Shown here piece by piece: positions 25,552-41,055 of a stretch of DNA of 64,000 bases; within the stretch, counting starts at the first letter, position 1, and each line of letters begins with the position of its first letter. Source of the stretch: Candidatus Eiseniibacteriota bacterium. Its GTDB lineage: Bacteria; Orphanbacterota; Orphanbacteria; Orphanbacterales; Orphanbacteraceae. The translations under genes were made by a program, and so were the position numbers. Under the pieces are notes generated by a model that saw nothing but the letters and a program-made list of their open reading frames with translations, ran no database searches and was not told where the DNA came from. The stretch is from NCBI GenBank assembly GCA_043809585.1, contig JBDROZ010000003.1:1-64000 (forward strand), written 5' to 3'.

Positions 25552-26163
25552 GAAACGGGTCCCGCTGGCTTCGAAGCGCTTCACGATTTCCGTGTCGTCG
25601 GTCCACTCGATGATCGCCGACTGGAGGTTCGTCAGATTGAGGGTCGTCTTGTACGTGACGACCCGCTTCTTATCCAGGGTCGACGAGATCGACGAGAGAT
25701 CCCCGGTCAGGATGTACATCGCCCCCTCCTGGCGCCCCGTCCGGACCGCCCGGGAAGGATCGACCGCGCCCGAGGCCTGGTACTTGTACTCCTCGAGAAT
25801 CGCGTCCCGCGCCTCCTTGTTCAGAAAGCGGACCCGCTGGGATTTCACGAGCTTCGTCCGGATCATGTCGGTCAGCGCCTTCACGTCGATGTGTTCCGCC
25901 GTCCCGTTTACCACCTCGTCCACGATCACCACGGGGCGTTCGCCCGGATTGAGGGCGGTGAATTCGGCGATCCACGGCGCGTTCAGGAGCGACTCCACCA
26001 TCTCGTCCGCCACGATCTGGTTGTCCACGTGGGACCACTTCGTGTCGTACTGGAGGTCCGTCGTCGGATCGAGGCGTTCCATCTCGATCGATTTGCCGCA
26101 GCCGTTGAAGGCGAAGACGAGCACCGCCGCGCCGAAGCCGATGATTCGAGTGATTCCTTGCAT
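25549..26163 (-). CDS. lpoB: Penicillin-binding protein activator LpoB-family lipoprotein
   Basis: Lipobox FNGC; PVVIVDEVVNGTAEHID, G..GA.YILTG.LSSI, L.LTNL...IIEW. Confidence 0.85.
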   Translation of the reverse strand: MQGITRIIGFGAAVLVFAFNGCGKSIEMERLDPTTDLQYDTKWSHVDNQIVADEMVESLLNAPWIAEFTALNPGERPVVIVDEVVNGTAEHIDVKALTDMIRTKLVKSQRVRFLNKEARDAILEEYKYQASGAVDPSRAVRTGRQEGAMYILTGDLSSISSTLDKKRVVTYKTTLNLTNLQSAIIEWTDDTEIVKRFEASGTRF

Positions 26164-26364
26164 GACCATCCTCCCTCCGAGGAGTGTCGAACCCGACGGG
26201 TCCTGTGTCGATCCGGCGCGGTCCCCGCGGAACCCCGTCCCGCACAGTCCACGCATTTTCATTCTTCGCCACGCTTTATGGGACCGCCGCCCGGTATCGG
26301 GACGGACCCCCCTTTGTCACCGCCCAGTTCACAGCAAGAAGAATGCCCGGGTTCCCGGCGTCTC

Positions 26365-26799
26365 CTATTCCGCGCCCACACCCGCGGCCGCCCCCGCCGC
26401 ATGGGCGCTGAGCCGGAGGAGGATCGGCTCGCTCACCGCGAGTTCCTTCCCCATGCCCCCCTTCGCGCGGATCCGGTAATAGAGCATGGTCCGGGCGAGG
26501 AACGGCTCCCGGACCTTCTCCGGGAACGGGATGAAGGCGGCCGAAGTCTTCCCCTTCCAGATCCCGCGCTTTCCCTCGTCCAGGATCTCCACGTCGTAAC
26601 CCGTCGCGCCGGGCACCGGGCGCCACCGGATTTCGTCCGGCACTCCCTCCTGCAGTCCCACGGGAAAGACGGGGAGAACGAAGGGGATCTCGTTCTCCGC
26701 GATCTTCGGGGCCGGTACGCGAATCGCGAAATACCATACCGCCATGAACGCGAGAACCGCCACCACTCCGAGCGCCGTCCAACGTGTCGCCACGGACAT
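26365..26799 (-). CDS. Membrane-anchored hypothetical protein (Ig/FN3-like strand pattern)
   Basis: 144 aa; N-terminal TM; WRPVPGATGYDVEI...YYRIRA; AAGGAG RBS. Confidence 0.65.
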   Translation of the reverse strand: MSVATRWTALGVVAVLAFMAVWYFAIRVPAPKIAENEIPFVLPVFPVGLQEGVPDEIRWRPVPGATGYDVEILDEGKRGIWKGKTSAAFIPFPEKVREPFLARTMLYYRIRAKGGMGKELAVSEPILLRLSAHAAGAAAGVGAE

Positions 26800-26955
26800 C
26801 TCCTTTCCCGGGCCTTCCGGCCCCGCTTAAGGCATTGTAACGGAATCGCCGCAGCGATCCAGCATCGAGATCGGGAACCGGAGCGTCCCGGCGTTGTATA
26901 CACTAAGTACAAACGACCCACCGGCGGTCCCTCGGGCCGCTCGAAAGGAGCAAGA

Positions 26956-28449
26956 ATGAGAACCGAAGACCACAACCCCAACGGAAACAATAGGTTCCTG
27001 GCGCCGATCCTGGCCGGAGTCGCCGCGACGGCAGTTCTCGCCGCCCTATTCGCGTTCTTCGGGACCGGAGCTCCGGCCCACGCCATGGATCCGGACGAGA
27101 GGGCGGCGATCGGTGCGGCGAAGAGTCTCGGCAAGGCGTTCACCGCCGTCTCCCGGGAAGTGATCCCCGCGGTGGTGACCGTCACGAGCGACAAGGTGGT
27201 GCGTCCCGCTCAGGGACTTCCGAACAATGACATGCACGACTTCTTCCGCTTCTTCGGCATGCCCTTCGGCGAGGACGGGGGACCGGAGATGGTCCAGCGC
27301 GCCCTCGGATCCGGTGTGATCATCTCCGAAGACGGTTACATCATCACCAACAGCCACGTGGTGGCGAACGCGAAGGAGATCGCCGTCATCCTCTCGGACG
27401 GCGAGGAGTACGGCGCCGAAGTGATCGGTACGGACCCGAAGTCGGACGTGGCGGTGATCCGGATCGAAGGGCGGAACCTCCCCTACGCGAAGCTCGGGGA
27501 CTCGGACGCCCTCGAGGTGGGCGAATGGGTGCTCGCCGTCGGCTCCCCCTTCAGCCAGAACCTGAACCACACGGTGACGGCGGGTATTGTCTCCGCCAAG
27601 AGCCGCGTGGCCGTGGGGCTCGCGGATTATGAGGACTTCATCCAGACCGACGCCGCGATCAACCCCGGGAATTCAGGGGGAGCGCTCGTGAACCTGGACG
27701 GTGAGGTGGTCGGCATCAACGCGGCCATCGCCTCCCGGAGCGGTGGGTCCCAAGGGGTCGGCTTCGCGATTCCGATCAACATGGTCACCCGGATCAAGGA
27801 CGCCCTGATTCAGGACGGTGCCGTGACGCGCGGATGGATCGGCATCGGCATCCAGGAGGTGAGCCGGGAAATCCAGGACGCCCTCGACCTTCCCGACAAG
27901 AACGGCGTGCTGATCTCGAACGTCATGGACGATAGCCCGGCGGCCGAGGCGAAACTCGAGCGCCAGGACGTGATCGTGTCACTCAACGGCAGGAAGGTGG
28001 AGAGCATGCGGACCTTCCGGAACGAGATCGCCGATACGCCTCCGGGATCGGACGTGAGGCTCGGCATCCTCCGCAAGGGGAAGACGATCGACAAGACGGT
28101 GACCCTCGGCCGGCTGCCCGGCGAGGAGGAGCCGGCGCCGGCGATCGCCCGGGCGGCGGGGGAGAAGCTCGGCATCGACGCCCGCGCCCTCGACGCGGAA
28201 ACCCGCGGGGCCTACGGCATCGAGAGAAGTGGAGGCGTGGTCGTCACCGGCGTTCGCCGCGGCTCGCCGGCGGCGCGGGAAGGCGTCCGGGAGGGGGACA
28301 TGATCGTCTCCCTGAACGAACAGGAGATCGAGTCCATGGCCGACTACGGCCGGGCCATGGACGCCCTCGAAGAGGGGGAGGTCGCCCTCTTCCTCGTCGA
28401 AAGGGGCGGATCGACGTTCTTCGTCGGCGTGCGGGTTCCGAAGGAGTAG
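26956..28449 (+). CDS. degP: HtrA/DegP (Do family) serine protease with two PDZ domains
   Basis: LGSGVII, TNSHVV, DPKSDVAV, IQTDAAINPGNSGGAL; AAGGAG RBS. Confidence 0.93.
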   Translation: MRTEDHNPNGNNRFLAPILAGVAATAVLAALFAFFGTGAPAHAMDPDERAAIGAAKSLGKAFTAVSREVIPAVVTVTSDKVVRPAQGLPNNDMHDFFRFFGMPFGEDGGPEMVQRALGSGVIISEDGYIITNSHVVANAKEIAVILSDGEEYGAEVIGTDPKSDVAVIRIEGRNLPYAKLGDSDALEVGEWVLAVGSPFSQNLNHTVTAGIVSAKSRVAVGLADYEDFIQTDAAINPGNSGGALVNLDGEVVGINAAIASRSGGSQGVGFAIPINMVTRIKDALIQDGAVTRGWIGIGIQEVSREIQDALDLPDKNGVLISNVMDDSPAAEAKLERQDVIVSLNGRKVESMRTFRNEIADTPPGSDVRLGILRKGKTIDKTVTLGRLPGEEEPAPAIARAAGEKLGIDARALDAETRGAYGIERSGGVVVTGVRRGSPAAREGVREGDMIVSLNEQEIESMADYGRAMDALEEGEVALFLVERGGSTFFVGVRVPKE

Positions 28450-31489: not shown

Positions 31490-31665
31490 GCCCACGGATG
31501 CCGAGTCGGTCCGTCACGAGGGACCGGATCCCGCGGCGAGAGGGGTTTCGGACGAGTCCCGGACCGGAGGCGGGGCTATGGCCCCGTCGAGGACCGGGAC
31601 GACGGAGAAAGCCCTCGCAGGCCGGGAGCCGGTTCCGCAGTAGGAGCGACGAGGAATCCGCGGGC
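31490..31665 (+). repeat. GA-loop rod hairpin element, copy C
   Basis: Arms gcccacggatgcc/ggaatccgcgggc; loops gtcacga/gcagta, ggcga/gcag, cggacga/gacggag, cggag/cga. Confidence 0.85.
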
Positions 31666-34600
31666 TAACGTAACCCGTACTTCTCGAGCTTCTTGTGGAG
31701 GCCCCAACGGGAGAGGCCTAGATCGCGGGCCGTCTTGGAGACGTTGTCCTGGTTCTTTTCGAGGTGGCGGCGGAGGAGCTCCCGCTCGTACCGTTCCATC
31801 TGGTCCCTGAGGGGGCCGGACGAGGCCGCCGCTCCGAGAGGCGCGGGCCCCCCCGAGGCCGACCCTCCCCGGATCGCGGGGGAAAGGCGGTCGGGGGTGA
31901 CCACGCCCGCCTCGTCGAGCACTACCACCCGGCGCATCTCGGAGCGGAGCTCCCGGACGTTGCCCTGCCAGGCGTGGCGGACCAGGGCCTGCGCCGCCTC
32001 CTCGTCGAGCCGGACCGGGTCCTTCCCCATCTCGGCGGAGAAGATCCGGAGAAAGTAGTTCGAGAGAAGAAGAATGTCTTCCACCCGCTCCCGGAGCGGA
32101 GGCAGGTTGATGTTGATCACGTTCAGCCGGTAGTAGAGGTCTTCCAGAAACCGGCCCTCGTCGACCTCTTTCTTCAGATCACGGTTCGTGGCGCAAATGA
32201 ACCGGACGTCCACGTCCTGGAACTGGTTCGCGCCGAGGGGGCGGATCCGCTTCTCCTCGAGCACGTGCAGGAGTTTCGACTGGACCTGGGGATTCATCTT
32301 GTCGATCTCGTCGAGGAAGACCGTCGATCCCGACGCCTCGACCAGAAGGCCCGTCTTGTCGGCGTGGGCGCCCGTGAAGGCCCCGTGCCGGTGTCCGAAG
32401 AGCTCGCTCTCCAGGAGTTGTTCCGGGAGTGTCGCGCAGTTGACGCTGTACATCGTTTTCGAGCCCCGGGGGCTCGACCCGTGCACGGCGTTCGCGATCA
32501 GCTGTTTGCCCGTCCCCGTCTCTCCCTGGATCAGGACGGTCACGTTCGTGCCCGCCACCTTCCGGACCAAGTCGAGGACATCGTACATGCGCTCGCTCTG
32601 GGTGACGATCTCGTCGAACCGCGAGGACCGGTTCACCTGGCGCCGGAGGCGGACGTTCTCTTCCTCCAGCTCCTTCTGTTTCGTCGAGAGGAGGGAGAGG
32701 ATGAAGCGCTGGGACCGGACGAGGCCGACCACCAGATCGAGCTCTCTCGAGCCGTACGGTGTCCGGTCCTGGGCCCGTTCGAGATAAATCGCCCCCGAGA
32801 TCTCCGTGTTCGTCTGGAACGGCACGAGCAGAAGGCTCTGCACCGTCCCCCCTTCGGAGAGGGCCGATCCCGGAATGCGCGGGTCCTTGGTCACCGCCGT
32901 GGAGAGGAACGGCCGCCCGCCCCGCCGGCACCGGTCGAACACCGGCAGCAGCAGGCGCACGACCTCCCGAGCCTGCTTCCGGTCGAGACCGTGCGCGGCC
33001 CGCTCCACCGGCCGGCCGTCGCCGTCGTCGAACACGACCAGGATCCCCCGGTCGCCGTTCGTGCGCTTCACCAGGTCCTCGAGGAGATGGGCCAGATCGA
33101 AATCGTCCGAAAGGGCGGGAAGAAGATCGTGAATGGCAAGATGATCGTTCCGCCCCGAAAGGGAGCGGTCGACGACGATCTCCTCGAGGGCGCGGCGGAG
33201 CCGGTCCACCTTGTCGAGGAGCGGCGCATCCGCCGCCTCCGTGAAGATCTGTTCCGCCTGGGCGAGGGCGTACTCCCATTTGTCCGAAATCCCCTCCCGG
33301 GCGAGGAGACGGGCCTCCTCGAGACGGGCCTTGCCGAGCCATATCGGGACGCCCGCTTCGCCGAAGATCTTGCGCGCCTCCGCGATCTCCAGTTGGAGAT
33401 CCGCGTCGTCTCCGAGGGAAGCGTCGATCGTGAACCGCACGTGCCGCACCAGGGCCTTGCCGAGTTCGACCTTCTCGTCCATTTCCCGAAGCCGGGAGAT
33501 GCCCTGGCGGAACATCCGCTCCCCTTCCTCCATCCGGCCCTCTTCGGCGGCGAGGGCCCCGAGGGCGCAGGCGAGAACGGCCTCCTCGAAGCGCTCGCCG
33601 ATCTTGCGGGCCGCGATCATGGCGCTCCGTAGATGAGAGCCGGCCCGGTCGAAGGCCCGGAGCTTCATTTCCGCCGCGCCGAGACGGCGCCCGATCTGCA
33701 CGGCGTGCTCCGAATCGGGACCGAGGGGCGCCGCCGCGACGAGGGCTTCCTCGTAGAGGCGGATCGCCTTCTCCGGGTCGCCCCCGTGACGCTCGATGTC
33801 TCCGAGGTCGCGCCGAATCAGCACCTCTTCCCGGAGGTATCCGTGCTCGACGCAATCGGTCAGGGTCGACTCCAAGTGGGACCGCGCTTCCTTGCGCTTC
33901 CCCCGGAGGATCTGAATCCGGGCCAAACCGATGCGGGAGAGGGCGACGCACTGCTGCTGGCCCGTCTGCAGGTAGATCCGGAGGGAGTCGCGGTACGCCT
34001 CCTCGGCGAGCTGCAGATTGCCTTTGTGGAAGTGGGTCACCGCCATGTTCAACAGAACGTGGCCCCGGTAGGAGTAGTCCCCGCTGACGTTCAGGATCTT
34101 CTTGGCATTCTCGAGCAGGTAGAGGGCACGATCGTTGTCGCTTCTCTCCTTGCAGACGAGGGCGAGGTTGATCGTCGCCTGCACCTGGCGCCGCGAATCG
34201 CCGGCCCGCCGGGCGCTCGCGAGGGCGTCCTCGTAATACTCCCGGGCCCGCTCGTAATCGCCGGTCCGGAAGTAAACGTGACCGAAACAGATGTGGAGCT
34301 TCGCAAGCGCGGCATCGTCCCCGCTTCGCTGCAGGATGCGGAAGGCCTCCTCACAGCGTTCCGCCGCCGGTTCGTACCGCCCCCGCTTGATCTCCAAGTA
34401 CCCACGGAGAATGCTCACTTCCGCCTCGAGGGGCTTCCGCTCCGGATCCGGGAGTTCGGCCGCTTCCCGGGCCGTGTCGTGGAGAGCGCGCTCCGTCGAG
34501 GCGAGATCACCCCGCTCGTAGAGGCACCACGCCTCCTTGACGCGCACCGCGACCGCGTCGGCGGGCGATAGAGAACCGCGGCTCACGCCGAGGGTTCGAA

Positions 34601-34766
34601 AATCGTGATACTTGTTCTGGGCCTGTTGGAATTGATCGACGTCGTAGTAGAGGTCGCCGAGGCGTTCGAGACGGGCGAGGCGCTCGTCCACGTCCCTCTC
34701 GTCGTCGAGACGATCGAGAGCCGTGAGCTCACACTGGATGAGTCTCTTTCGGTCGTCCGTGGTCAT
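31665..34766 (-). CDS. Sigma54-dependent enhancer-binding protein with N-terminal TPR array and GAF domain
   Basis: About 520 aa of TPR-like helices, GAF-like middle region, GETGTGK, ESELFGHRHGAFTGA, FLDEID, RFLEDLYYRLNV, WQGNVREL, Fis-type HTH; no TM segment or receiver domain. Confidence 0.92.
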   Translation of the reverse strand: MTTDDRKRLIQCELTALDRLDDERDVDERLARLERLGDLYYDVDQFQQAQNKYHDFRTLGVSRGSLSPADAVAVRVKEAWCLYERGDLASTERALHDTAREAAELPDPERKPLEAEVSILRGYLEIKRGRYEPAAERCEEAFRILQRSGDDAALAKLHICFGHVYFRTGDYERAREYYEDALASARRAGDSRRQVQATINLALVCKERSDNDRALYLLENAKKILNVSGDYSYRGHVLLNMAVTHFHKGNLQLAEEAYRDSLRIYLQTGQQQCVALSRIGLARIQILRGKRKEARSHLESTLTDCVEHGYLREEVLIRRDLGDIERHGGDPEKAIRLYEEALVAAAPLGPDSEHAVQIGRRLGAAEMKLRAFDRAGSHLRSAMIAARKIGERFEEAVLACALGALAAEEGRMEEGERMFRQGISRLREMDEKVELGKALVRHVRFTIDASLGDDADLQLEIAEARKIFGEAGVPIWLGKARLEEARLLAREGISDKWEYALAQAEQIFTEAADAPLLDKVDRLRRALEEIVVDRSLSGRNDHLAIHDLLPALSDDFDLAHLLEDLVKRTNGDRGILVVFDDGDGRPVERAAHGLDRKQAREVVRLLLPVFDRCRRGGRPFLSTAVTKDPRIPGSALSEGGTVQSLLLVPFQTNTEISGAIYLERAQDRTPYGSRELDLVVGLVRSQRFILSLLSTKQKELEEENVRLRRQVNRSSRFDEIVTQSERMYDVLDLVRKVAGTNVTVLIQGETGTGKQLIANAVHGSSPRGSKTMYSVNCATLPEQLLESELFGHRHGAFTGAHADKTGLLVEASGSTVFLDEIDKMNPQVQSKLLHVLEEKRIRPLGANQFQDVDVRFICATNRDLKKEVDEGRFLEDLYYRLNVININLPPLRERVEDILLLSNYFLRIFSAEMGKDPVRLDEEAAQALVRHAWQGNVRELRSEMRRVVVLDEAGVVTPDRLSPAIRGGSASGGPAPLGAAASSGPLRDQMERYERELLRRHLEKNQDNVSKTARDLGLSRWGLHKKLEKYGLR

Positions 34767-34826
34767 AAGACCCGCGTGCCGATCCCGCCGGAAACACCCG
34801 CCACGGGGAGCGGAATCCTTCCGGCG

Positions 34827-35171
34827 TTAGAATGCGAACGCCGTGCCCAGCACGTCCGTGATGATGTTCACGAGACGCAGGAACTCTGCTTTCGTGAGGG
34901 TTCCCTCGCTGGCTCCGACGTAGACACTCATGTATTCGACACCTACGTCCACAATGTGATCGGAGCCCGTTCCCCCGAGAACCGGAACGGGATTGTCCGG
35001 GTCGCCGCCCCCATGGTCCTCTGTCCCGTCTCCATTCACGTCGATCGGGGGCTTGTTATACTTCGTGCCGTCATCCCCGTCATCGGCCCATGCGAACGAA
35101 AACGTCAGGCAGGTCGCCATGAAGACCACGAGCAGCACCTGGGGGAGCGCGGAGATCTTCCTCGAAACCAT
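34827..35171 (-). CDS. Small secreted acidic protein / putative pro-peptide
   Basis: 114 aa; Sec signal ending FAWA|DD; DVNGDG, GGGDPDNP; hydrophobic C-terminal helix; GGGAG RBS. Confidence 0.75.
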   Translation of the reverse strand: MVSRKISALPQVLLVVFMATCLTFSFAWADDGDDGTKYNKPPIDVNGDGTEDHGGGDPDNPVPVLGGTGSDHIVDVGVEYMSVYVGASEGTLTKAEFLRLVNIITDVLGTAFAF

Positions 35172-35245
35172 CTCTCCCTACCTTCCCTGTGGGGTGGATA
35201 CCGCATACCCAGTCGGTAGTCAGGATCGAACCCCGTACGTGTAAG

Positions 35246-35276
35246 ATTCTACTAAAGTTGACCCCCACTTGTCAAC
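35246..35276 (-). promoter_or_regulatory. Sigma70 promoter of the peptide/EBP operon overlapped by a GTTGAC-N8-GTCAAC inverted repeat
   Basis: Minus strand TTGACA-18 nt-TAGAAT; gttgac 35257-35262 / gtcaac 35271-35276. Confidence 0.65.
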
Positions 35277-35548
35277 GTGATGGAGCGACGTAGCCATTGG
35301 CAACAAGACGCAAGATTCGTTCCCCAGGAAGAGAATGAGAGAAGAAGAGATGTATCTCGCTATATTCATACAGATAGGACGAATGCTCCACCACATGGAG
35401 AGGTGAAATCACTTGTCAACAATGGTTGACGATCAAAAGACCAAAGTGCCCCATCCCCAGGAACACATTGTGAAACAATAAATTAGAGCTGTCAAGAGGA
35501 ATTGACGGTATTCCGGATCCTGGCAACTCCCGGTGACGGGCACTCCGG

Positions 35549-35587
35549 TTGACGGCGGCTCCTCGTTTCCCTATCCTCCCGTATAAT
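35549..35587 (+). promoter_or_regulatory. Sigma70-type promoter for the nucleoside phosphorylase
   Basis: TTGACG-17 nt-TATCCT, with a TATAAT just downstream. Confidence 0.5.
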
Positions 35588-35649
35588 CAAAAGGTAGCTC
35601 TCAGGTAGTCACATGGGCCCGGCCTCGGGCGGGGTCCCCGGGAGGAACC

Positions 35650-36483
35650 ATGGGTAAGCAGCTGATTACGGGATTAAGAGAATCGGATGTGGCTCCGTAT
35701 GTGTTTCTTTGCGGGGAGCCCGAAAGAGTCCCCCGGATCGCCGGCCTGATCGGGGGGGGCGAACAGGTGGCCGTGGTCCGGGAGTACACGATTCACCGTT
35801 GCGACTTGGGGGGGACGGAGGTGACCGTCGCGTCCACGGGTGTGGGGGGGCCATCGACGGCGGTGCTCCTCGAGGAGTTCGCCAACCTGGGGGCGCACAC
35901 GTTTCTCCGTGTCGGCACGTCCGGCGGGATCGGCGAAAAAGTGAGAAAGGGGGACTTCGTGATTTCCACCGGCGCGATCCGGGAGGACGGAACGTCCCAC
36001 GCCTACGCGTGGCCTTCCTATCCCGCCGCCGCCCACCATCAGGCGGTACTCGCGCTGATCGCGGCCGCGGAGACCTCGGGGGGCCGGTACCACGTGGGGA
36101 TCACGTTCTCGGTGGATGGGTTCTACGCGGAGAACAAAACCCTTCGGGAGGAGGGGCTCGCCTCCAAGTCCCACGGCGGTTTCCTGCTCCCATCCCGCGT
36201 CGACCGACTGGGTGACGTCGCCGCCATGGGGGCGATGCACATCGAGATGGAGAACGGCACGCTCTTCACGCTCGGGGGGCTCTTCGGTCTTCGTACGGGA
36301 TCGATCTGCACGGTCTCGGACGTGGTGCCCTGGCACCCCACGGAGGACATCATCAACTTCGAGGAGAACATCGCGGACTGCATCAAGGTCGGCATCGAGG
36401 GGATGAGGAATCTGATCGCCTGGGACAGGGAGCGGGGCGGCGCGGAGCACTGGCATCCAGGGATGGGAAGTGGCCCCCGTTGA
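35650..36483 (+). CDS. Uridine/purine nucleoside phosphorylase family protein
   Basis: GEPERV, STGVGGPST..LEE, RVGTSG, REDGTS, EME. Confidence 0.9.
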   Translation: MGKQLITGLRESDVAPYVFLCGEPERVPRIAGLIGGGEQVAVVREYTIHRCDLGGTEVTVASTGVGGPSTAVLLEEFANLGAHTFLRVGTSGGIGEKVRKGDFVISTGAIREDGTSHAYAWPSYPAAAHHQAVLALIAAAETSGGRYHVGITFSVDGFYAENKTLREEGLASKSHGGFLLPSRVDRLGDVAAMGAMHIEMENGTLFTLGGLFGLRTGSICTVSDVVPWHPTEDIINFEENIADCIKVGIEGMRNLIAWDRERGGAEHWHPGMGSGPR

Positions 36484-36670: not shown

Positions 36671-38071
36671 CCTTCGGCGCGCCTTGGTTCCCTCGGGAGT
36701 ATCCTCGAGCGCGATTCCCTTCGCGAGCAATTCATCCCGGATCCGGTCCGCCTCCGCGAAGTTCCGGCTCTTCCGCGCCTCCTCTCTCCGGCGCACGAGG
36801 CCGAGCGTCTCCTCGTCCAGGTCCGCCTCCTCGACGTTCATCGACTCGACGCAGAGACCGAGTACCTCGTCCATGGCGAGAAGGGTCGCGTGCTTGTCGG
36901 CGTCGGAGAGGCCGTCGTCTCTGAGAGCGCCCCAAAGCGAGGCGAGGGCCCGGGGCATGTTCAGGTCGTCGGCGAGGGCGGCGTCGAACGTCTCGAGATG
37001 GGCTTTCGAGGGCTCCCCGGCACCGGCCTTCCGAATCTCCACGACCCGGTTCCGGAGCCGGTCCAAGGCGTTGGCGCATCCGTCGAGGCTCTCCCACGTA
37101 AAGGTGAGGGGCGCCCGGTAGTGGGCGTTCAGGCAGAAGAGCCGGTAGGCGAGAGGATCGTATCCCCGGGCGACGAGGGTGTCGACGGTGACGAAGTTGT
37201 CCCCCGACTTGGCCATTTTCGCCCCCTCCCCCCCCTCTTCCTTCGAGGGGAGGACGAGAAACTCGCCATGCATCCACCACCGGACCCACTCGTGACCGTA
37301 CGCCGCCTCCACCTGGGCGATCTCGTTCGTGTGATGGATGGCGACGTGGTCCACGCCGCCGCAGTGGATGTCGAAGCTCTCGCCGAGGTAGCGGACCGAC
37401 ATGGCGGAGCACTCGATGTGCCAACCGGGGAAGCCGGTCCCCCACGGGCTTTCCCACTCCATCAGCCGCCGCCTCTCCTTGGGCGAAAACTTCCAGAGGG
37501 CGAAATCGGTCGCGTTCCTCTTCCCCTCCACCATCTCGATCCGGGCCCCCGCCTTGAGCCCCTCCCGGTCGAGCCGGGCGAGCTTCCCGTAGTCCTTCAA
37601 CTTCGCCGTGTCGAAGTAGATGCCGTCGCCGAGACGGTAGGTGTAGCCGTTCTCCTCGAGACGGCGGACGAGGTCGACCTGCTCCCCGATATGCTCCGTC
37701 GCCCGGCACCAGACATCGGGCTCCAGGATGTTCAGGCGCTTCATGTCTTTTCGGAAGGCGTCCCAGTAAAACTCCGCGATCTCCCAAACCGTCTTGCCCT
37801 GATTGGCCGCGCTCTTCTCCATCTTGTCCTCGCCCGTGTCGGCGTCGGAAACGAGATGCCCCACGTCGGTCACGTTCATCACGTGCCGCACCTCGAAACC
37901 CTCTCTCCGGAGAACGCGTTTCAGAACGTCTTCGAAAATGTAGGTCCTGAGATTCCCGATGTGGGCGTACTGGTACACCGTAGGCCCGCAAGCGTAGAGG
38001 CCCACCTTCCCGGGCTCGATGGGCTCGAAGACGTCGGTATTCCGAGTGAGCGTGTTGTAGAGGCGGATCAA
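36668..38071 (-). CDS. cysS: Cysteinyl-tRNA synthetase
   Basis: [43 protein letters not shown] start inferred. Confidence 0.96.
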
Positions 38072-38388
38072 TGGACTCTCCCCTCCCGGCTCGAAGCGGG
38101 CCCCTCCTCCGGCGCGCGGGCGAACCTCGCGCCCCATCCGGCGTTTCTACCATGGAGGGGCCAAGGCACCGGGAGAGCGAGTATAGAAGCGGCCTCCGGG
38201 GGGTGTCAAGGAACCGCCGGGGGCGGCGGAGCACTCCCCGGCGGGAGGCCCCCTCGGGCCGGCGGCCGGGAGACCGGGGCCGGGGGTCTCCCGAAACGGT
38301 TTGGCCGGCGGTCCCCCTGTGTTATATTGCGAGGGTTATTCTGGCGAGGGACCGGATGTCCACGAATCGGCGGGAGCGGAAAGAGACG

Positions 38389-41055
38389 ATGAGCGAAGAA
38401 AGACGGGAGCGTCCGGCGGCGGAGAAGACGCCGGCGACCGAGCCGGCGAGGCCGGCCGAGGAAAAGCACGACGGATCGATCACCTACGGGAGCCGGTTCG
38501 ATTGGGCCGTGGCGGCCGCGGTGGTCCTCGTCTCGGGCATCGTCTATTACATGACCGCCGGGCGGGGCGCCCCGTTCTGGGATTGCGGCGAGTTCATTGC
38601 CTGCGCCTACATCCTCGGCATCCCCCATCCCCCCGGAGCGGCCCTCTTCGTCATGACCGGCCGGGTCGTCTCGTTGATCCCGTTCCTCGACACGGCGTTC
38701 CTCCTCAACCTCTTCTCGGGATTGTGCAGCGCCCTCGCGGTCGGATTCTGCTCTCTCGCCCTCTCCCGGGTGGTGCGCCGGCTCCGAGGCCGCGAAGCGT
38801 CGATGACAGACAGGGTCGTGCTCTACGCCGGGTCGATCCTCGGCTCCCTCTGCATGGCGTTCGGGTCCACCTACTGGTTCAACGCCGTGGAAGCGGAGGT
38901 GTACGGTCTCACCCTCCTCCTCGTCTCGCTCCTGATCTGGCTCACCGTGCTCTGGTACGAGAGGGCCCGGACGCCGGAGGGGAACCGGATCCTGATCCTC
39001 CAGACCTATCTGCTCTTCCTCGGGGCGACGAACCACATGCAGTCGTTCCTCCCGATCATCCCGCTTTTTCTCCTCGTGTTCATGGTCGACCGGAGCCGCC
39101 TGAAGAGCCCGGTCTTCTGGGCGGTCTTCCTCGTCCTGACCGCCGTGATCCACTCGACGTCTCAGTTTCTCTTCGGAACGCCCATCGCCTGCGCCCTCTT
39201 CTTCGTGGCGATGTTTTCCAGCCGGTATTCCGACAGCCGCCGCGACTACGCGATCATCATTCTATCCCTAGTCGTCGGAGTCGTTCTTTACTACATGGGA
39301 GGAATGAAAGTGGCCGCCGCCGTGGGAGGCGCGGTCCTCGTTCTCGGTGCCGTCATGGTCCGATCGCCTGGAAGCGCAAAAGCTTACACGCTGGCCGGAT
39401 CCCTTCTCCTCGCCGCCATGCTCGGCTACTCGCTCTACGCCTACGTGCCGATCCGGGCGGCCGAGAACCCCGCGATCAACGAGAACCACCCGAAGGACTG
39501 GAAGAACTTCAAGATGTTCCTCGAGCGGAAGCAGTATTCGGACAAGTCGATGTTCGAGCTGATGTTCACACGCAAGGGAACATGGGGCAACCAGTTCGGC
39601 GATTTTCACCGCATCGGTTTCTGGTACCACCTGAAGGACCAGTGGCTGCCGCACAGGAACTACGGCCTCTACCTGTTCATCCCGCTGCTCACCCTCGGGG
39701 GCGTCTGGGCGCTCTGGAAGCGGGACCGGAAGATCGGCCTCTACTTCCTCGGGAGCCTGCTCCTCTTCACCGTCGCCATGACCCTCTACCTCAATTTCTC
39801 GGACGACACGAAGGGCGTGAAGCTCGAGGTGCGTGACCGGGACTACTTCTACACGCCCGGCTTCGTCATGATCGCCTACATGACGGGCATCGGGTTTTCC
39901 TGGCTCCTCGGGGTGATCCTCTCGGCCCGGTTCGGGAGCCGCGCCCTCCGGGAGTCGGTCGTCGCCGGCCTGGCGATCATCTCCCTCGCCGTGCCGATCA
40001 CGACGGTGAAGGCCAAGTTCTACGAGCACGACCGCTCCCGGTTCTGGGTCGCCGAAGACCTGGCGTACAACATGCTCGTCGGGCTCCGGGAGAACGCCAT
40101 CCTTTTCACCGGAGGGGACAACGACACATTCCCTCTCTGGTACATCCAGGAGGTGCGGGGCTTCCGGAAGGACGTGCGCATCGTCAACCTGAGCCTCCTG
40201 AACACCCCCTGGTACATCAAGCAGCTGAAATACGAGGATCCGAAGGTCGCGATTCCGCTGAACGACCAGGAGATCGAGGGTCTCCGGGGCTACTACTCGC
40301 CCGGGGGGGAAATCGTCACGATCAAGGACATCGTGATGCCCCTCATCATCCGGGACAACATCAAGAACCGGGCCGTTTACTACGCCATCACCGTGCCCAC
40401 GTCGGACCAGGGGGCGGTCCAGAAAAAGCTGATCCAGGAAGGTCTCGTCAAGCGTATCGAGCCGGACCTCGAAGAAGAGTCGATCAACGTCAAGGAGATG
40501 GAGAAGAACTTCGGCGAAGGCCAGTACCGGTTCCGGGGTCTCGACGACCCGACCGTCTACAAGGACCGGGACACGCGACGCCTCCTCACGAACTACAACG
40601 CCTGCCTCTACAACTTGGCCCAGCTTTTCCAGCGGGCCGGGGAACCGGAGAAGGCGCAAAAGTACATCGCGATGCTCCGCTCCTGGCCCCACGACAACAT
40701 GGCGGGAAACCGGATGCTCGCCCTCCTCGCCGAAGGGCAGCAGGATTGGGAGATGGCGCTCCAGTACATCGGCCGGTGCCGGGAACTCGAGCCGGCGGAC
40801 GGCCTGAACTACGTGAAGGAGGCGGAATACCTCCGGAAGCTCGAAAGGACGGACGAGGCGATCGATCTGATCCTCGAAGCCCGGCGGTTCCTCCCCGAAG
40901 ACCGGACGGTCCTCGGCGCCGTGATCCGGACCCTCACCGGCACGAACCGGGAGGGGGAGATCACCTCTCATCTCGAGGATTGGGTTTCGCGGCACCCCGA
41001 GGACGAAGGGGTGAAGCAGGCACTGCAGACGTACTACCGGGGAGCCGGGGACTAG
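38389..41055 (+). CDS. DUF2723 (TMEM260-like) multi-pass membrane protein with C-terminal TPRs; probable GT-C glycosyltransferase
   Basis: FWDCGEFIA...LGIPHPPG, AVEAEVY, RDRDYFY, GDNDTFPLWY.QEV. Confidence 0.88.
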   Translation: MSEERRERPAAEKTPATEPARPAEEKHDGSITYGSRFDWAVAAAVVLVSGIVYYMTAGRGAPFWDCGEFIACAYILGIPHPPGAALFVMTGRVVSLIPFLDTAFLLNLFSGLCSALAVGFCSLALSRVVRRLRGREASMTDRVVLYAGSILGSLCMAFGSTYWFNAVEAEVYGLTLLLVSLLIWLTVLWYERARTPEGNRILILQTYLLFLGATNHMQSFLPIIPLFLLVFMVDRSRLKSPVFWAVFLVLTAVIHSTSQFLFGTPIACALFFVAMFSSRYSDSRRDYAIIILSLVVGVVLYYMGGMKVAAAVGGAVLVLGAVMVRSPGSAKAYTLAGSLLLAAMLGYSLYAYVPIRAAENPAINENHPKDWKNFKMFLERKQYSDKSMFELMFTRKGTWGNQFGDFHRIGFWYHLKDQWLPHRNYGLYLFIPLLTLGGVWALWKRDRKIGLYFLGSLLLFTVAMTLYLNFSDDTKGVKLEVRDRDYFYTPGFVMIAYMTGIGFSWLLGVILSARFGSRALRESVVAGLAIISLAVPITTVKAKFYEHDRSRFWVAEDLAYNMLVGLRENAILFTGGDNDTFPLWYIQEVRGFRKDVRIVNLSLLNTPWYIKQLKYEDPKVAIPLNDQEIEGLRGYYSPGGEIVTIKDIVMPLIIRDNIKNRAVYYAITVPTSDQGAVQKKLIQEGLVKRIEPDLEEESINVKEMEKNFGEGQYRFRGLDDPTVYKDRDTRRLLTNYNACLYNLAQLFQRAGEPEKAQKYIAMLRSWPHDNMAGNRMLALLAEGQQDWEMALQYIGRCRELEPADGLNYVKEAEYLRKLERTDEAIDLILEARRFLPEDRTVLGAVIRTLTGTNREGEITSHLEDWVSRHPEDEGVKQALQTYYRGAGD

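Follow-up and report, generated by a model that had tools for sequence, protein, structure and literature searches.

A gene for a small, predicted exported protein paired with a TPR-bearing sigma-54 activator in Candidatus Eiseniibacteriota: a candidate peptide-sensing cassette

What does a cytoplasmic sigma-54 activator with a long array of TPRs respond to, and is a small exported protein encoded next to it part of the answer? This question is raised by a locus of a Candidatus Eiseniibacteriota bacterium (GenBank assembly GCA_043809585.1, contig JBDROZ010000003.1, positions 1 to 64,000; this whole stretch of 64,000 nucleotides is called the window). Two co-oriented open reading frames (ORFs) lie here on the minus strand, as do all further features of the cassette for which coordinates are given. 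The first (34827-35171, stop codon included) encodes a small precursor of 114 amino acids (aa) that is predicted to be exported and has homologues in relatives. The second (31665-34766) encodes an enhancer-binding protein (EBP) of 1033 aa, and the 60-nt spacer between both (34767-34826) is likely an operon junction. An earlier note on this DNA had described precisely this arrangement, a 114-aa gene 60 bp upstream of a co-oriented 1033-aa EBP, with which the ORF coordinates agree. It proposed a peptide-sensing module reminiscent of the RRNPP systems, but wired to sigma-54.

The pairing of the small gene with the EBP gene is not due to chance. Ten Eisenbacteria species were surveyed, namely this genome, eight other genomes of its family and one from the only other family of the class. 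To the loci of this genome, 40 TPR matches from the eight family genomes and three from the other family were added. Upstream ORFs were selected with heuristics for the hydropathy of the N-terminus and of the tail and for length and position, without regard to the acidic motif. This genome contains 25 ORFs with a sigma-54 AAA+ domain, six of which have an N-terminal TPR array. Five of these six TPR-EBPs are preceded by a co-oriented ORF whose product starts like a signal peptide, is acidic in its core and ends hydrophobic. Across the ten genomes, an upstream small ORF accompanies 40 of the 42 TPR-EBPs below 1300 aa, and the other two are located at contig edges without upstream DNA. The controls are empty: no such ORF was found beside the 19 non-TPR EBPs of this genome (0/19), beside TPR proteins lacking an AAA+ domain (0/12) or beside three giant TPR-EBPs of 1730-1770 aa (0/3). 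The giant proteins are encoded at L024 (this genome, contig C69:17462-22675, minus strand), L059 and L068, and the one on C69 has a 74-aa signal-peptide ORF downstream instead of upstream.

In the cassettes, the gap between both genes ranges from -4 to 85 nt, with one further gap of 162 nt (one record was mis-picked in this tally), and the complete EBPs have a length of approximately 760-1045 aa. Within group A, i.e., the orthologues of the locus in the window, the EBP orthologue directly follows the small gene on the same strand in all nine genomes (9/9), the TPR part being 53-70% identical across the other eight. A scan of metagenomes for the motif of the small protein additionally found an EBP downstream at 3/3 evaluable loci, after exclusion of L087, a chance motif in an unrelated frame, and L088, of which the contig is too short to judge. 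Group A genes are kept in a syntenic block that consists of an HtrA-like protease, ETF-QO, the EBP, the small gene and a purine-nucleoside-phosphorylase-family gene (PNP), and adjacency of the orthologues alone therefore proves little. When related loci were searched with the family alignment, nothing came back beyond the same Eisenbacteria metagenome-assembled genomes and two weak TPR matches, and a search with the single TPR protein retrieved no relatives.

The small protein starts with a K/R n-region (MVSRK) and a hydrophobic core, followed by an A-x-A type site between FAWA and DD, which together predict a Sec signal peptide spanning residues 1 to approximately 27-29 (35085-35171). Signal peptides were judged by hydropathy and the -3/-1 rule, a heuristic used here instead of SignalP, and export is thus a prediction. 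The predicted mature protein has a net charge of -12 and carries the stretches DVNGDG and HGGGDPDNPVP. It ends in a hydrophobic tail, FLRLVNIITDVLGTAFAF, which corresponds to an amphipathic or hydrophobic helix of approximately residues 96-114 (34830-34886). The Sec signal, acidic core and hydrophobic C-terminal end that had been noted earlier are thus all visible in the sequence, the first of them by heuristic. The two acidic stretches fared differently: DVNGDG is not conserved in the orthologues, by which its candidacy as a calcium loop was rejected, and GGGDPDNP.P proved to be invariant.

Homologues of the small protein are present in all eight other genomes of the family (8/8) and in none of 32 genomes outside it. 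A profile of 11 homologues, searched against 1.84 billion proteins, retrieved only 16 representative clusters, all of which contain [GS]GGDPDNPVP; a word-based search with the small protein yielded two close relatives only. In the alignment of 20 homologues, residues G55, G56, D57, P58, D59, N60, P61 and P63 are invariant (20/20), against a mean column identity of 38%. The motif GGGDPDNPVP (residues 54-63; 34983-35012) occurs a single time in the six-frame translation of the whole genome. For the small ORFs of seven close pairs, dN/dS is 0.15-0.74 with one pair at 1.21, and five of the seven pairs are at or below 0.5. Together with the invariance of the motif, this indicates that the flanks drift while the motif stays. 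The idea of the earlier note depended on the small ORF being conserved and on its adjacency to homologous EBPs, and it has survived on both counts. GDPDNP, which that note had put forward as a candidate mature signal, lies inside the only invariant stretch of the protein. The five small proteins of this genome have no match in Pfam or NCBIfam, the PEP-CTERM model included, at E-values up to 0.1. The ESM Atlas model of the small protein is poor (pLDDT 0.42) and gave no usable feature match.

The locus in the window is one of approximately five paralogous cassettes per genome. The 40 small proteins have a length of 70-114 aa, most of them being shorter than 100 aa, with a mature part of 46-87 aa and a median net charge of -6. 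The same heuristic finds a K/R n-region, a hydrophobic core and small residues at -3/-1 in every one of the 40. The acidic motif is likewise present in all 40. A hydrophobic tail is found in all of them too, but this is not an independent observation, as the tail was a selection criterion; the net charge of the tails varies from -3 to +4. Five classes can be told apart by a short motif that is invariant within the class and lies between highly variable flanks: GGGDPDNPVP in class A, GDGDIPE in class B, where it immediately follows the predicted signal-peptidase site, DTDPDDFP in class C, [ED]VDPDGLEG in class D and GDPD[DTHV]P in class E. Comparison of the class profiles gave 91.8% for A with C (over nearly the full length), 95.3% for A with E, 96.5% for C with D and 92.4% for C with E, figures that may be inflated by the signal peptides.

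In a quick IQ-TREE phylogeny of 38 EBPs, each motif class occupies one side of a single branch, with SH-aLRT values of 100 for A, B, C and D and 68 for E. This match between class and clade reflects a stable pairing and the duplication of whole cassettes. It is not evidence of independent co-evolution, because kin share labels. As a separate observation, the cassettes of group D have a third conserved gene approximately 250 nt upstream of the small ORF, encoding a membrane protein of 60-80 aa that carries the motif ARFCAVNAGWEKIA. It was seen at L022 (this genome, contig C76:6195-6380, plus strand), L038, L044, L046, L051 and L073.

The partner of the small gene is a bona fide sigma-54 EBP. 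It contains a Sigma54_activat domain (PF00158; residues 720-886, E 6.5e-65) with an intact Walker A sequence, GETGTGK, and an intact GAFTGA loop, followed by an AAA lid (AAA_lid_14, PF25601; residues 892-971, E 4.2e-20; both domains together at 31854-32609) and a C-terminal Fis-type DNA-binding domain with a helix-turn-helix (HTH_8, PF02954; residues 990-1030, E 3.8e-6; 31677-31799). There is no Pfam match to a receiver domain, and no transmembrane segment is predicted, the maximal Kyte-Doolittle value over a 19-residue window being 1.26. In NCBIfam, the best matches of the EBP are other equivalogs, all far under their cut-offs. The sensor part covers residues 1 to approximately 545 (33132-34766) and matches TPR_12 in four stretches (E 1.2e-28) as well as TPR_MalT. 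In the AF2 model of the N-terminal 547 residues it comprises 26 helices, or approximately 13 TPR-like repeats, with a pLDDT of 91.6 and a pTM of 0.85. Hence Pfam, sequence and hydropathy agree with what was first read from the DNA, i.e., some 500 aa of TPRs, an intact GAFTGA AAA+ domain and an HTH, with neither a receiver nor a membrane segment.

Among the Foldseek matches listed for the TPR model, the closest solved folds are LGN/Pins, subunits of the APC/C, OGT and APPBP2. These include TPR domains that were solved with extended peptides, i.e., LGN with Inscuteable, NuMA or Frmpd4 and APPBP2 with a degron. No RRNPP receptor is found among the listed matches, but the sequence of the TPR domain weakly matches the RRNPP receptor NprR (E ~2e-4). 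Between the TPRs and the ATPase, Pfam detects no GAF domain in residues 540-716, even at an E-value of 10. The AF2 model of residues 543-719 (pLDDT 84.2) nevertheless resembles the GAF-A domain of DosS (E 7.7e-8, TM-score approximately 0.6-0.7) and the GAF domain of NifA (E 4.5e-6) in Foldseek. On the strength of this model, the region of approximately residues 558-685 (32712-33095) is assigned as a divergent member of the GAF family, in agreement with the earlier proposal and although Pfam misses it. Prediction of a complex between the TPR domain and the mature small protein (residues 30-114) gave a score of 0.01 relative to a mark of 0.32; this run had no controls and is uninformative either way.

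How, then, might the two proteins be connected? We tentatively favour, at somewhat less than an even chance, that each TPR sensor specifically binds the exported protein of its own cassette, whole or as a fragment, which would follow the logic of the RRNPP systems by analogy and without membership of that family. A strong sigma-70 promoter would drive the two-gene operon. The first product would be a small, acidic and largely disordered protein that is exported by Sec and loses its signal peptide, and the second a cytoplasmic sigma-54 activator with a 13-repeat TPR superhelix and a GAF domain as its input. The exported protein, or more likely a Pro/Asp-rich fragment around GGGDPDNPVP that we infer to be protease-resistant, would re-enter the cytoplasm through a peptide transporter and bind in the TPR groove of its own activator. 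Binding would switch oligomerisation or ATPase activity of the AAA+ domain, leading to sigma-54-dependent transcription of unlinked targets. Each paralogous cassette would then be a private channel, defined by its own motif (GDGDIPE, DTDPDDFP, EVDPDGLEG or GDPD[DT]P in the others).

We prefer this ligand reading because the pairing is strictly one-to-one, because each class has its own invariant motif with the TPR superhelix as the only class-specific partner, and because the nearest folds were solved with bound peptides and the TPR domain weakly matches NprR. Re-import would be possible in principle, as the genome has six OPT-family genes and two SBP_bac_5 (OppA-type) genes. The six OPT-family genes (PF03169) of this 4.2-Mb genome are located on contigs C70, C82, C52, C31 and C107 (two genes); in the control genomes, PF03169 had matches in only 2 of 14.

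Several considerations weigh against the small protein acting as a returning ligand. Export, processing, re-import and direct binding are inferred steps, as is the direction of the effect, activating or inhibiting, and the signal peptides themselves are heuristic calls. In a diderm, with its outer membrane, a true signal between cells would face two barriers, each to be crossed twice. The motif does not change between genera that share only 53-70% identity in their TPR domains, while known RRNPP pheromones usually diversify into pherotypes. It is also internal, while in most propeptides of the Phr, PapR and AimP type the signal is C-terminal. The hydrophobic C-terminal tail of all 40 small proteins has no role in the peptide model; speculatively, it could anchor the protein in the membrane or mark it for periplasmic proteases of the PDZ type, to which the product of the syntenic HtrA-like gene belongs. 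Ligand sensing could in fact fall to the GAF domain, with the TPRs in another role, and the adjacency within group A could by itself be inherited synteny. Lastly, no target promoter was found near the cassette, and the orthologous group A loci have no strong conserved sigma-54 site.

A first alternative, which we consider rather unlikely, is that the two proteins are functionally linked but never touch each other. In that case, the small protein would have its role in the envelope: a factor in the periplasm or at the membrane surface, a substrate or decoy for a protease, or a product that is secreted. Its EBP neighbour would sense something else via its GAF and TPR domains, and both would be co-transcribed for one pathway. 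The GAF fold is the classic small-molecule sensor of EBPs such as NifA, the amphipathic C-terminal tail suggests membrane association rather than a diffusible peptide, and group A keeps a gene for an HtrA-like PDZ protease in synteny; contact between the two proteins, moreover, is hypothetical. On the other hand, the one-to-one pairing holds at 40/40 evaluable loci in five old paralogue classes and two lineages, against 0/19 for the other EBPs. The invariant motif that each class has for itself is hard to explain without recognition by its sole class-specific neighbour. No further conserved gene accompanies all cassettes.

A further possibility, distinctly less probable, is an export-coupled partner switch, in which the TPRs bind the unexported precursor, in a chaperone-like or anti-activator fashion, and export by Sec frees or changes the EBP. 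Re-import across two membranes would then be unnecessary. Both proteins come from a single mRNA (gaps of -4 to 85 nt) and would meet at birth, and the TPR fold resembles scaffolds for long disordered partners, e.g., LGN. EBPs under the control of neighbouring protein partners exist as well (PspF-PspA, HrpS-HrpV and NifA-NifL), and precedents for switches of this type are FlgM with sigma-28 and the TPR chaperones of type III secretion, IpgC and SicA. However, export by Sec runs constitutively and fast, with no evident checkpoint, a single export pathway does not need five private motifs per genome, and the near-consensus sigma-70 promoters would flood the cell with a partner that is on its way out. 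The view that the small ORF is not real or not relevant, with an adjacency that stems from inherited synteny or from noise in the calling of ORFs in GC-rich DNA, is strongly disfavoured to the point of being highly improbable: many spurious ORFs do arise in such DNA, the group A genes form a syntenic block and one close pair has a dN/dS of 1.21, but the open frame and architecture are kept in 40 loci and five classes, an invariant 8-residue core is found inside diverged proteins, 5/7 close pairs have a dN/dS of at most 0.5, the gene has an RBS (ribosome binding site) and a conserved promoter, and the controls are empty (0/19, 0/12 and 0/3).

In PMC10075063, the RRNPP signature consists of a propeptide of 10-100 aa that is secreted by Sec/SPI and a receptor of 250-500 aa that has TPRs, encoded by directly neighbouring genes, and the tool presented there is dedicated to Gram-positive bacteria. 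Measured against this signature, a receptor with TPRs and direct adjacency of the genes (60 nt here) agree, and receptor size, at 1033 aa, does not. Secretion by Sec is predicted by heuristic, and the propeptide range of 10-100 aa compares with 114 aa for the precursor in the window and with 70-114 aa, mostly below 100 aa, for the 40 cassette proteins; with these two counted in, four of the five elements would fit in logic. As in the pairs Rap-Phr, NprR-NprX, PlcR-PapR, PrgX, Rgg-SHP and AimR-AimP, a gene for a small candidate propeptide with a predicted Sec signal lies beside that of a cytoplasmic TPR receptor, and several paralogous pairs per genome each have their own peptide signature. Unlike in these pairs, the output consists of a GAF domain, a sigma-54 AAA+ ATPase and a Fis-type HTH instead of an HTH- or phosphatase-type effector, and the hosts belong to a diderm candidate phylum. 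The precursor ends in an amphipathic helix, the element that is conserved lies inside it and does not vary between genera, and beyond the generic TPR similarity (NprR, E ~2e-4) there is no homology. The cassette is therefore not an RRNPP member by homology, and 'quorum sensing' is an analogy and not a finding. From the original idea of an RRNPP-like peptide-sensing module, the pairing, the conserved motif and a TPR superhelix model of the peptide-groove type have held up; a receptor size outside 250-500 aa and a motif without pherotype diversity do not fit it.

Among EBPs, the closest parallels are those controlled by a partner protein, i.e., PspF-PspA, NifA-NifL, HrpR/S-HrpV and DhaR-DhaK/L. 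Their activity is likewise set by a separately encoded, adjacent protein and not by phosphorylation, and NifA has a GAF domain too. Their partners differ in being cytoplasmic or peripheral membrane proteins without Sec signals. We know of none that has a long TPR docking array or that exists as five motif-coded paralogous pairs. The eukaryotic TPR domains of LGN/Pins and kinesin light chain are the closest to the sensor domain in solved fold and in sequence, and they hold extended, often acidic, disordered peptides in their inner groove. Their function and lineage are unrelated, and the structural analogy extends only to the binding of a disordered acidic ligand. The cassettes have one trait in common with the PEP-CTERM/exosortase systems that include the sigma-54 regulator PrsR and the TPR protein PrsT (PMC1569441), namely small proteins with a signal peptide and a hydrophobic segment at the C-terminus, in genomes that have many sigma-54 regulators and TPR proteins. 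The cassette tails differ in having no PEP motif by the helix and no basic or Arg cluster after it. The small proteins were ruled out as PEP-CTERM cargo, as the five of this genome have no NCBIfam match at E-values up to 0.1 and the tails end hydrophobic.

Outside the phylum, the TPR profile was searched against 31 genomes of other lineages, and ten of the best loci, from six genomes, were examined. Seven of the ten are not TPR-EBPs, and only one genome of another lineage (G028) has TPR-EBPs among them. All three of its TPR-EBPs (L075, L076 and L077; 690-987 aa) have an upstream signal-peptide ORF, with the motifs EHPWDGD, EDHPWGGDG and GDEDPFP. The HPW[DG]GD and GDEDPFP motifs of G028 resemble ED-H-GGGD and DPDDFP of the Eisenbacteria cassettes. 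A broader proposition would be that FCB-group diderms (Eisenbacteria and at least one other lineage) have exported-peptide/TPR receptor pairs wired to sigma-54, with approximately five orthogonal, motif-coded channels per genome, that evolved independently on an EBP chassis; at present we consider this somewhat unlikely.

The cassette and its motif are real and specific, and apparently undescribed. A full-text search of the literature returned no paper in which a TPR-EBP has an exported small protein as its partner; supplementary tables, e.g., those of PMC10075063, fell outside this search and may list candidates. It is textbook knowledge that Bacillota and their phages have cytoplasmic TPR receptors which bind exported peptides encoded in the genome. 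To our knowledge, no such receptors have been described in diderms, and none that act through sigma-54. If the small proteins are ligands, TPR-type EBPs, which are widespread but uncharacterised, would gain a first input signal. Peptide signalling of the RRNPP logic would then have arisen outside Gram-positives, and each genome would offer five natural, mutually orthogonal ligand-receptor pairs with short, synthesisable motifs. Even if there is no binding, the strict 40/40 pairing points to a regulatory module that is conserved and undescribed and that Eisenbacteria share with at least one other lineage.

With respect to expression, the small gene is preceded by a sigma-70-type promoter (35246-35275), which consists of TTGACA and TAGAAT separated by 18 nt (11/12 matches) and was identified by a scan and by conservation. 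TTGACA with a TAnnAT -10 box is found 85-116 nt before the start codon in 9/9 group A loci. Near-consensus sigma-70 promoters are located upstream of the small ORF in groups B and D as well, with 6/7 loci of group D scoring 12/12. The 5' leader (35172-35245), partly conserved among the orthologues, has an RBS, GGGAGAG, just before the ATG. Transcription of the start of the small ORF and its leader is hinted at by an RNA library (one metatranscriptome), in which contigs with 0 differences cover 35063-35266 and 35237-35342, although strand and level are not readable from these contigs and DNA may be present. The window has no other exact match in this library. The three DNA runs and one RNA run contain fragments only, and uncovered parts of the EBP carry no meaning. 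Cassette spacers have no consistent terminator- or attenuator-like fold, and no Rfam family matches in 34700-35700 at E-values up to 1.

Signs of sigma-54 control are weaker. A scan of the window for the sigma-54 consensus gave 10 matches where 9.1 were expected, none of them near the cassette. As no strong conserved sigma-54 promoter lies near the cassette, the targets of the EBP are probably unlinked to it. In 4/9 group A loci, a sigma-54-like GG-N10-GC element occurs some 50 nt further upstream than the sigma-70 promoter, at positions -153 to -168 (score of at least 16), a level that 281 of 2000 shuffled regions reach by chance (14% per region). This is too weak for calling autoregulation. 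In the window, the element (GGGAACGAATCTTGCG) is located at 35309-35324, approximately 35 nt before the -35 box, and its status is uncertain: a score scan finds it, a consensus scan allowing two mismatches did not pick it up, and either a weak sigma-54 promoter or a site for an activator is conceivable. As GGAACGA(T/A)T..TGC, it recurs in altered form in other group A loci.

Some minor features of the surroundings are worth recording. The divergent intergenic region upstream of the small gene (35172-35649, 478 nt) contains a second TTGACA-type promoter-like site (35495-35467, minus strand) and repeated GTTGACAAGTG words, and the contigs of the RNA library reach up to 35342-35368 in this region. 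The HtrA-like protease gene of the group A neighbourhood is found at 25891-28449 (plus strand) and is syntenic in four to five family genomes. Its product has a Trypsin_2 and two PDZ domains, which start only at residue 467 of the 852-aa frame. Also kept in this neighbourhood is a gene for a TMEM260-like protein O-mannosyltransferase with C-terminal TPRs (38071-41055, plus strand).

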